Shown one piece after another: positions 34,820 to 34,906 of a stretch of 64,000 bases of DNA. Within the stretch, counting starts at the first letter, position 1, and each line of letters starts with the position of its first letter. Below the pieces are notes generated by a model. It did no database searches and had not been told where the DNA came from. It saw nothing but the letters and a program-made list of their open reading frames with translations. The DNA is from a virus (lineage: Duplodnaviria > Heunggongvirae > Uroviricota > Caudoviricetes), in the IMG/VR virus record IMGVR_UViG_3300016476_000987; one strand, 5' to 3'. Made by a program: the position numbers and the translations under genes.

Positions 34820-34906
34820 AGTCAGGTGGCTGTAGGTATCAGCTTTAGGAGGTTGCATCTCTGTTATGTGTAATGCCTTCCACGGGTTCGAATCCTGTTC
34901 TGACTA
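34820..34906 (+). ncRNA. non-canonical tRNA-like element 4 (paralog of element 1)
   Basis: Acceptor AGTCAGG/TCTGACT + A. D arm GCTG-TAGGTAT-CAGC. T arm ACGGG-TTCGAAT-CCTGT. The centre is GGAGG..GCAT-CTCTGTT-ATGT..CCTTC and shares GCATCTCTGTTATG with element 1. Confidence 0.55.

Follow-up and report, generated by a model that had tools for sequence, protein, structure and literature searches.

Results

Two paralogous tRNA-like elements share an insert

The stretch of DNA analysed here, referred to as the window, comprises the 64,000 nucleotides (nt) of IMG/VR record IMGVR_UViG_3300016476_000987 (Caudoviricetes). Between 32.5 and 35.6 kb its plus strand carries seven tRNA-like elements, E1 to E7, which start with AGTCAGG or a variant and end in a T arm and a complementary CCTGACT. 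Among them lie four genuine tRNAs (Leu-TAG, Leu-TAA, Met and Arg) and small open reading frames (ORFs), and none of the seven elements was called when ARAGORN was run on the window. An earlier note on this DNA had described a 14-nt core common to E1 (32564-32651) and E4 (34820-34906), and had proposed that it lies in an elongated arm with a conserved loop. That narrow finding is correct, if modest. The interesting part is what lies behind it and had been missed: E1 and E4 are members of a large phage family in which tRNA-Leu-like scaffolds carry interchangeable inserts, and their insert is therefore one module among hundreds and not an oddity of two elements.

The cloverleaf of E4 is its minimum-free-energy (MFE) fold, with the acceptor stem at 34820-34826 and 34899-34905, the D arm at 34829-34843, the insert at 34844-34881, the T arm at 34882-34898 and the discriminator A at 34906. 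E4 scored 26.1 bits against the Rfam tRNA model (RF00005; gathering score 29), with the anticodon region skipped. Within the insert, the consensus fold of six copies predicted a hairpin at 34848-34880, in which GGAGG (34848-34852) pairs with CCTTC (34876-34880), GCAT (34855-34858) and ATGT (34866-34869) enclose the loop CTCTGTT (34859-34865), and GTAATG (34870-34875) forms the 3' bulge region.

E1, on the same strand, is a paralogue with a degenerate scaffold. Its insert hairpin (32593-32625) was predicted by the MFE fold with pair probabilities of 0.8-0.93 and consists of GGAGG(G) (32593-32598) with (T)CCTCC (32620-32625), T 32620 being the wobble partner of G 32598; GCAT (32600-32603) with ATGC (32611-32614); the loop CTCTGTT (32604-32610); and a 3' internal loop, ATAAA (32615-32619). 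In Rfam, E1 matched only tRNA-Sec (RF01852), where its 18.1 bits fall far short of the gathering score (47). The D arms of the two elements (ACCU…AGGU in E1, GCUG…CAGC in E4) are not of the Leu type. Compared with the family definition given below, E4 matched apart from one acceptor G·U, and E1 matched in its acceptor and had a variant T arm.

The core, GCATCTCTGTTATG, was located on the plus strand at 32600-32613 and 34855-34868, with no other exact copy in the window. Allowing up to two mismatches gave three matches in the window against 0.51 expected, and no shuffle reached three. E1 and E4 were 82% identical over the 38-nt insert and 68% over the scaffold; their likeness reflects homology of paralogues, not chance. 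The helices that had been drawn for both, GGAGG/CCTYC and GCAT/ATGY around CTCTGTT, can be read in each sequence, as can the two C-to-T differences between them (ATGC versus ATGT and CCTCC versus CCTTC).

Fold of the insert arm

A consensus fold was computed with RNAalifold over six E1/E4-type copies, namely E1, E4 and those at the fetched loci L312, L286, L293/L300 (one identical element) and L310. The consensus was a cloverleaf with an acceptor stem of 7 bp (8 with a flanking T/A), a T stem of 5 bp and an invariant U3-A70. The proposed extended arm was recovered as its third arm, composed of a lower helix of six pairs (5-6 bp; columns 30-35 with 57-62) that includes one wobble swap (U·G in E4-type, G·U in E1-type copies), a 3' bulge with an invariant UAA, an upper helix of 4-5 bp and the 7-nt CUCUGUU loop.

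Single-sequence folding gave a divided answer for the arm as originally drawn. In E1-type copies the consensus arm was also the MFE fold (P 0.8-0.93), and in E1 itself the MFE was the drawn fold. The lower helix of E4-type copies had a probability of 0.99, which the G·U in the window's own E4 lowered to 0.24-0.49. The E4-type copies preferred other registers of the upper helix: the shared register had a probability of 0.01-0.02 in L286, L293 and E4 and at most 0.05 in L310. L286 and L293 favoured UGCAU/GUGUA around a 9-nt loop, and E4 favoured GCAU/AUGC around a 14-nt loop. In E4, GCAU pairs with the downstream AUGC at P 0.43, and three upper-helix registers compete; the models predict a conformationally ambiguous apex. 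Folded alone, the two hairpins were only modestly stabler than shuffled sequences (z of -1.1 and -1.7).

Compensatory changes among the six copies were found at one acceptor pair, three D-stem pairs and one T-stem pair. Pair counting over the same copies gave none in the insert helices, where changes were one-sided. The argument that the differences between E1 and E4 keep pairing was right as far as it went, but covariation inside the hairpin is weaker than it suggests: among the copies, G·U replaces G-C or A-U by a change on one side, and the sole two-sided change is the wobble swap at one extra pair. The elongated arm is thus a prediction backed by thermodynamics and consensus folding, and weakly by covariation.

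These folds also bear on the possibility that E1 and E4 are genuine decoding tRNAs, reading through either the long arm or a competing short arm, AGGAG-GUUGCAU-CUCUG (anticodon UGC in E4, CUC in L310). The short fold exists as described earlier, the three positions at which the 5' side of the insert varies among copies (UUG, UCU or GCG) would fall at positions 33-35 of its loop, and the scaffold is tRNA-like. However, the probability of the short arm never exceeded 0.011, its stem contains an A·G mismatch in all six copies, and its loop has G33 in the E1-type ones. The long arm fares no better, as 10-11 bp would carry its loop far past the decoding position. In addition, neither E1 nor E4 was called by ARAGORN or reached the Rfam gathering threshold. 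A decoding function is barely credible on this evidence, and the earlier conclusion that the arm is not a decoding anticodon arm is upheld.

Conservation of the insert among relatives

Metagenomes were scanned with the pattern CATCTCTGTTATG plus a T loop, which demands 13 of the core bases. Five of the 27 loci obtained were true homologues on a tRNA-like scaffold, two of which (L293 and L300) carry an identical element. L312 is the E1 orthologue, with an identical insert and a compensatory change of the D stem from ACCU/AGGU to GCCU/AGGC. L293 and L300 are E4-type copies with CCTCC instead of CCTTC. L286 occupies the E1 locus and has the E1 downstream flank and an E1-like D arm, yet carries an E4-type insert and T arm, and is a visible hybrid of E1/E4 conversion. 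The scaffold of L310 is strongly diverged, while 35 of its 38 insert positions are kept; the three changes are an A to G that gives a G·U in the lower helix, one substitution in the bulge and a G to U that breaks the outer pair of the upper helix. CCTTC was found only in this phage (E4 of the window and its near-identical copy in L358), and CCTCC in L286, L293/L300 and L310; CCTTC is the derived variant.

In pairwise comparisons of distinct copies, insert identity (82-100%) equalled or exceeded scaffold identity (54-98%) in every case except E4 versus L293 (97% versus 98%), a reversal of the family-wide pattern. AGGAGG and AUG were invariant in five of the six copies. The core recurred in metagenome homologues, kept at 13-14 of 14 positions on diverged scaffolds, but no true homologue turned up in viral contigs. 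There, GCATCTCTGTTATG alone gave only chance matches in coding DNA, and neither the scaffold with TCTCTGTTA nor the core with a T loop recovered a true homologue. A scan of viral contigs independent of the core (lower helix plus T loop) likewise returned no homologue of the E1/E4 insert, which indicates that this insert type is rare. BLAST against GenBank phages gave no close relative of the region and nothing matching the insert.

The conserved motifs could in principle mimic a specific site, namely a tRNA-Gln(CUG)-like loop that decoys an anticodon nuclease, a translation initiation region, or a CRISPR repeat, in which case the insert would be an RNA anti-CRISPR. The loop CUCUGUU resembles the CUCUGAA of two tRNA-Gln(CUG) genes at unrelated fetched loci; however, the two loops disagree at positions 37-38, and some tRNA can be found to fit any Y-U-NNN loop. 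The near-invariant AGGAGG, 12 nt and AUG recall an initiation region, and UGUUAUGU may resemble the T4 RegA SELEX consensus, but the genes of this phage are without Shine-Dalgarno sequences, the ORF from the AUG is unconserved, and no RegA homologue was found in the window. GUUGCAUCU presumably matches the start of the PbuCas13b repeat, a 9-nt resemblance; against a repeat, the 14-mer matches in viral contigs were all single copies with no arrays (80 of at least 120 loci listed). Even taken jointly, these forms of mimicry are very unlikely. Coding use of the same AGGAGG, 12 nt and AUG was rejected, as the ORF has 14-52 codons, is unconserved and ends where the scaffold dictates.

A family of tRNA-like elements with exchanged inserts

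E1 and E4 belong to a family built on the pattern AGUCAGG…GGUUCGAAUCCUGUCCUGACU-A-C, in which near-invariant acceptor, D and T arms surround a hypervariable middle. The family was defined by an AGTCAGG 5' strand, the 3' part GTTCGAATCCTGTCCTGACT, a non-canonical middle and an A73-C74 trailer. A regular expression applied to all fetched loci gave 196 unique elements (137, of 77-190 nt, in an earlier pass), and the 3' constant part GTTCGAATCYTGYYCTGACT was matched at at least 120 viral-contig loci, often several times per locus. The acceptor stem, the tRNA-Leu-type D arm GUGGCGGAAUUGGUAGACGC and the T arm ACAGGUUCGAAUCCUGU were near-invariant. Compensated variants were found in the D stem (GCG/CGC, GTG/CAC, GCT/AGC and GCA/TGC) and the T stem (ACAGG/CCTGT, ACAAG/CTTGT and GTAGG/CCTGC), together with an acceptor variant, AGTTAGG/TCTAACT. 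The middle, which spans 12-150 nt from D arm to T arm, was essentially unique to each element: 195 distinct inserts formed 173 similarity clusters, 156 of them singletons. Orthologous inserts kept their loops and swapped helix sequences, as seen for E2 versus L132 and L133 versus L169.

The family was absent from isolate genomes. Among GenBank phage records the scaffold was present in MW202828 only, a spring-water metagenome assembly, and among 185,579 species genomes it was confined to 18 contigs of metagenome-assembled genomes, with roughly half in Bacteroidota bins (Chitinophagia, Sediminibacterium, Flavobacterium and Saprospiraceae). Rfam 15 has no entry for the family, and Rfam searches of the window island and nine family-rich loci at permissive E-values returned tRNA-model matches, one freshwater-1 RNA and noise. 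That RNA (RF02979; L138:4124-4186; 70.1 bits against a gathering score of 72) lies within the tRNA/tRNA-like island of another phage. A keyword search of the literature found no description of the family, and a survey of structured RNAs in IMG/VR (PMC10690425) includes generic 'tRNA or tRNA-like' candidates without mentioning it. This family of RNAs from freshwater phages is widespread and, it appears, has not been described before.

At a given orthologous site the insert can be exchanged for another, and this happens even where two genomes are nearly identical. The E1 site in L286 is occupied by an E4-type insert, and in L145 a different insert precedes the small ORF that follows E4 in the window. 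L312 is without the segment from the 3' end of E1 to the 3' end of E2. L358 (ENA ERZ27292626 k141_330835), the only match of an exact-protein look-up, is identical to the window from E1 through E6 and has a different tRNA-like element and insert (L358:3974-4078) at the site of E7 (window 35508-35591), a strain-level replacement.

Flanking signals and tests of tRNA identity

The ends of family members were compared with those of genuine tRNAs from the same phages. U was present at position -1 in 84% of members and 67% of tRNAs, C at position 74 in 98% of both, and an A-rich trailer followed in both; the discriminator was A73 in 88% of members. No terminator-like site lay between the elements, the only one on the plus strand of the island being at its end (35945-35982); overall, the scan for sigma-70 promoters and terminators was uninformative. 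From these signals we infer co-transcription and maturation by tRNA-processing enzymes.

A canonical anticodon arm was found at the expected position in 10 of 133 members, compared with 9.9 expected in shuffles. Loops with U33 and a purine at 37 were not enriched in the inserts (25 versus 20.5 ± 4.5), and family-wide mimicry of anticodon loops was limited to a mild excess of U at loop position 2. ARAGORN nonetheless reported a tRNA at 40 of 178 family elements, in some cases with an anticodon of 2 or 4 bases, and the Rfam tRNA threshold was exceeded by several elements. Among the 131 members with long inserts, 15 real inserts were called without the intron option versus 13-17 shuffled ones, and 110 versus 97-103 with option -i. 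Since calls were as frequent after the inserts had been shuffled, they are driven by the scaffold, which makes the family a problem for annotation. An intron-bearing tRNA was rejected because these counts contain no intron signal and the inserts are too short for group I introns.

Other classes were rejected for E1 and E4 as well. Both have the 7-bp acceptor, the D arm with GG and the T arm with a GTTCRANYC loop of a canonical tRNA, the T stem of E1 having three standard pairs; the 5-bp anticodon stem with a 7-nt loop (U33, purine 37), expected one nucleotide past the D stem, is absent, as are calls by threshold or tRNA finder. For tRNA-Sec or an allo-tRNA (8/5, 8/4 or 9/3), whose acceptor-T branch of 12 or 13 bp includes a longer acceptor stem, the low RF01852 score of E1, the 7-bp acceptor and the 5-bp T stem do not fit. 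A tmRNA would have G3·U70 where these elements have U3-A70, and none was found in the window by ARAGORN or Rfam.

A different role would follow if the acceptor end were the active part, with the elements serving as non-decoding tRNA-Leu mimics that a conserved tRNA-Leu D arm, elbow and A73 would make substrates of host leucyl-tRNA synthetase (LeuRS). Charged or uncharged, they might then act as leucine donors, as sinks for LeuRS or EF-Tu, or as decoys for toxins directed at the 3' ends of tRNAs, and the insert would only modulate this activity. The Leu-type D arm of the family consensus and the prevalence of A73 point this way, as do the recognisable tRNA-Leu genes among the members (L274:1908 and L163:5644). 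Bacterial LeuRS reportedly depends on A73 and the core tertiary structure, not on the anticodon, according to work on minimalist E. coli tRNA-Leu. For the Aquifex enzyme, A73 is named in PMC2377443. E1 and E4 both have A73, with no Leu anticodon and no separate variable arm. Against this role, the Leu-type D arm is missing from both, E1 is without U8, and no tRNA-dependent transferase was found in the 64 kb. Leucylation as the principal function is improbable.

Ligand hairpin or filler

Collectively, E1 and E4 have a tRNA-like fold with compensatory changes, no anticodon arm, tRNA-type flanks and an insert more conserved than its scaffold, within a family whose inserts are diverse and swapped. 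We read them as non-decoding scaffold RNAs that would be matured by tRNA enzymes and whose insert hairpin would be recognised as a ligand in a sequence-specific manner, and would probably serve as a sponge or decoy when phage and host are in conflict; we assign this reading a probability of about 0.5. That the elements are transcribed, processed and perhaps leucylated, and that they act as ligands or decoys, is deduced here from sequence. Under this reading, E1 and E4 would be co-transcribed with the genuine tRNAs and small ORFs of a single plus-strand island (about 31.3-35.9 kb) and excised by host tRNA maturation, with RNase P cleaving at the 5' end, trimming at the encoded N73-C74 and completion of CCA. 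The tRNA-Leu-type acceptor, D arm and T arm would provide a stable, self-processing chassis. In place of the anticodon and variable arms they would display a 38-nt imperfect hairpin, formed by the 5-6 bp GGAGG/CCUCC helix, the 3' UAA bulge, a 4-5 bp helix and the CUCUGUU apex. This hairpin would be the functional part, a ligand for a host or phage protein (or RNA). The suggestion in the earlier note that the conserved loop is a binding or cleavage target is plausible.

The main rival holds that only the scaffold matters. The elements would then be RNase P and 3'-end punctuation marks of a polycistronic island, recombination boxes, or both; the middle would be filler, and the shared core would stem from duplication or gene conversion. 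The position of the elements between small ORFs with no internal terminators, and their tRNA-like flanking signals, agree with punctuation, and the rearrangement junctions at scaffold ends (the loss of E2 and the sequence downstream of E1 in L312, and the L286 hybrid) agree with recombination boxes. However, where scaffold identity is down to 54-78%, filler would not have kept 13-14 of the 14 bases of the core. In diverged copies the E1/E4 insert has also changed less than its scaffold, and other orthologous inserts show compensated helices and conserved loops (E2/L132 and L133/L169).

Several observations weigh against a ligand hairpin, and some of them favour the scaffold. Minimal members, in which only 12-20 nt join the D and T arms (for example L274:1587-1647), are tRNA bodies without an anticodon arm and suggest that the scaffold alone is functional. 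The inserts are hyperdiverse and on average weakly structured (mean z of -0.77), and many of them may therefore not be folded ligands. The scaffold of E1 has C8 in place of U8 and a T stem of three G-C pairs and two U·U. Conservation of the core is partly circular because 13 of its bases were fixed by the search, which does not apply to the rest of the insert, and conservation of the E1/E4 insert could partly reflect gene conversion between paralogues. No linked partner protein was found, the best neighbour family being present at only 10 of 116 loci, and the E1-E7 inserts had no antisense targets in the window beyond those of shuffles. Taking both sides together, the scaffold-only explanation is the most serious competitor, though an unlikely one.

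The island and its surroundings

The remaining elements of the island, all on the plus strand, differ in their inserts and in details of the scaffold. E2 (32773-32875) has a 52-nt insert and an orthologue in L132 that is 93% identical with two compensatory pair changes. E3 (34420-34529) combines a canonical tRNA-Leu-type D arm with an insert of about 60 nt. E5 (35030-35152), whose L205 orthologue is 88% identical, contains an anticodon-arm-like GAGGG-GUCAACA-UCCUC followed by an extension of about 53 nt. E6 (35273-35376) has the 3' acceptor strand CCTGACC and scored 20.2 bits against the Rfam tRNA model over its 3' part. E7 (35508-35591) is diverged, with the acceptor GGTCAAA/TTTGACC and an insert resembling that of L154. 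The genuine tRNA-Leu(TAG) (31343-31423, plus strand) was skipped in the Rfam gathering run on the whole window and scored 53.7 bits on a shorter stretch, a filter effect that is relevant to the tRNA-like elements too.

A leader hairpin, TTGACAGC-CGG-AAAGAC-GGC-AAA (general form TGACAGC-stem-GGAAAGAC-stem-GCAA), was found at 35484-35506 (plus strand), directly 5' of E7, with further plus-strand copies at 35701-35719 and 35722-35741, 5' of tRNA-Met (4 nt upstream). Elsewhere it precedes the 5' ends of ten tRNA-like elements by 2-6 nt (in L121, L144, L153, L188, L205, L274, L293 and L317), and its stem covaries (CTCG/CGAG, CTTG/CAAG and CACG/CGTG). It could be a processing or promoter element.

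Conserved non-coding sequence was found around the elements. The plus-strand stretch 32425-32560, from an SPFH-like gene to E1, is common to L312, L184 and L223 and includes a CCGTAAGATC motif that L274 also has, there too ahead of an element; the stretch may represent a further structured RNA. Downstream of E2, 32876-32995 (plus strand) is kept in L312 and ends in a degenerate remnant resembling a T arm and acceptor (TTCAGTCCTGGCTAC; AATCCTGTCCTGATTGC in L312), and may be a decayed element. The inter-element stretches 35154-35272 and 35377-35507 (plus strand) are without ORFs, and 35353-35512 shares 80% identity with L205:4369-4538.

Farther downstream, some 3.5 kb from the island, the ORF at 39391-39945 (plus strand) matched Pfam Tad3, a type I Thoeris inhibitor (E 1e-32, 112.8 bits), which places the island in an accessory region of the anti-defence type. 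The window derives from a large phage that encodes a DnaB-like helicase, ribonucleotide reductase, PolA, gp32, a RecA/UvsX-like recombinase, GroEL, ThyX and many glycosyltransferases. Its genes, as read from the sequence, are without Shine-Dalgarno sequences, whose absence is typical of Bacteroidota hosts. Other genes observed were those for a NUMOD3-motif protein, a likely homing endonuclease (14515-15279, plus strand), directly after the DNA polymerase gene; the GroEL-type chaperonin (16272-17945, plus strand); a response-regulator receiver-domain protein (43672-44400, plus strand); and an HNH endonuclease (51059-51484, minus strand) in a block of minus-strand genes. A weak WYL-domain match was found at 28746-29534 (plus strand), with no domain passing alone.

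Discussion

Beyond E1 and E4, freshwater Bacteroidota phages may practise a natural form of tRNA-scaffold display, in which a single chassis derived from tRNA-Leu and matured by host tRNA enzymes would express a hyperdiverse, rapidly exchanged set of small RNA modules, the E1/E4 hairpin among them. In conflict with the host these modules would work as inhibitors, aptamers or decoys, so that the system would be to RNA what anti-defence islands are to protein. We put this forward tentatively, as a possibility well short of an even chance. Mimics of tRNA are known as such; what appears neither in Rfam 15 nor in the literature searched is a multi-copy phage family that combines a near-invariant tRNA body with hundreds of unrelated, swapped inserts. 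If the inserts are functional modules, nature would have preceded engineers in using a tRNA as a scaffold. The family would then also be a new class of accessory RNA in phages, with a possible anti-defence role, and a source of compact hairpins that bind protein or RNA.

Non-decoding tRNA mimics include the TMERs of MHV68, mascRNA and bacterial YrlA, in which RNase P or RNase Z generates the ends and which make or stabilise another RNA module. These differ from the present elements in host and architecture: the hairpins of TMERs follow the tRNA-like part, and the tRNA-like module of YrlA sits on a Ro-binding stem. The Rfam YrlA model had no match in the window and one weak match in L163 (26 bits against a gathering score of 69). 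Like tmRNA, the family has a tRNA-like acceptor and T-arm domain with other RNA in place of the anticodon arm; unlike tmRNA, it has U3-A70 and a full D stem, lacks both pseudoknots and a tag ORF, and measures 61-220 nt against about 360. Stable RNA species 1 and 2 of the T4 tRNA cluster are small RNAs of unassigned function that mature together with tRNAs. They are single genes, whereas the present family is modular and multi-copy, and no sequence relationship between the two is evident.

Class II tRNA-Leu shares with the family the 7-bp acceptor, the U8-G9-GCGG-AAUUGGUAGA-CGC D arm with G18G19, the GGUUCGAAUCC T loop and A73; the flanks of family members match those of genuine tRNAs in the same phages, and a few members still look like tRNA-Leu. 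E1 and E4 depart from it in having no 5-bp/7-nt arm at the canonical position, no Leu anticodon, no separate variable arm and other D arms, as well as in their sub-threshold Rfam scores and the lack of ARAGORN calls, and the acceptor AGUCAGG belongs to this family alone. A tRNA body retained for its folding, processing and stability, in which a foreign hairpin or aptamer replaces the anticodon or variable arm, is likewise the design of engineered tRNA scaffolds and of aptamer-tagged tRNAs (PMC7590224); these are laboratory constructs, whereas the phage version, known here from sequence, would be natural and diversified. By analogy, the elements seem to resemble most closely such engineered scaffolds and aptamer-tagged tRNAs, together with processed tRNA-like noncoding RNAs.

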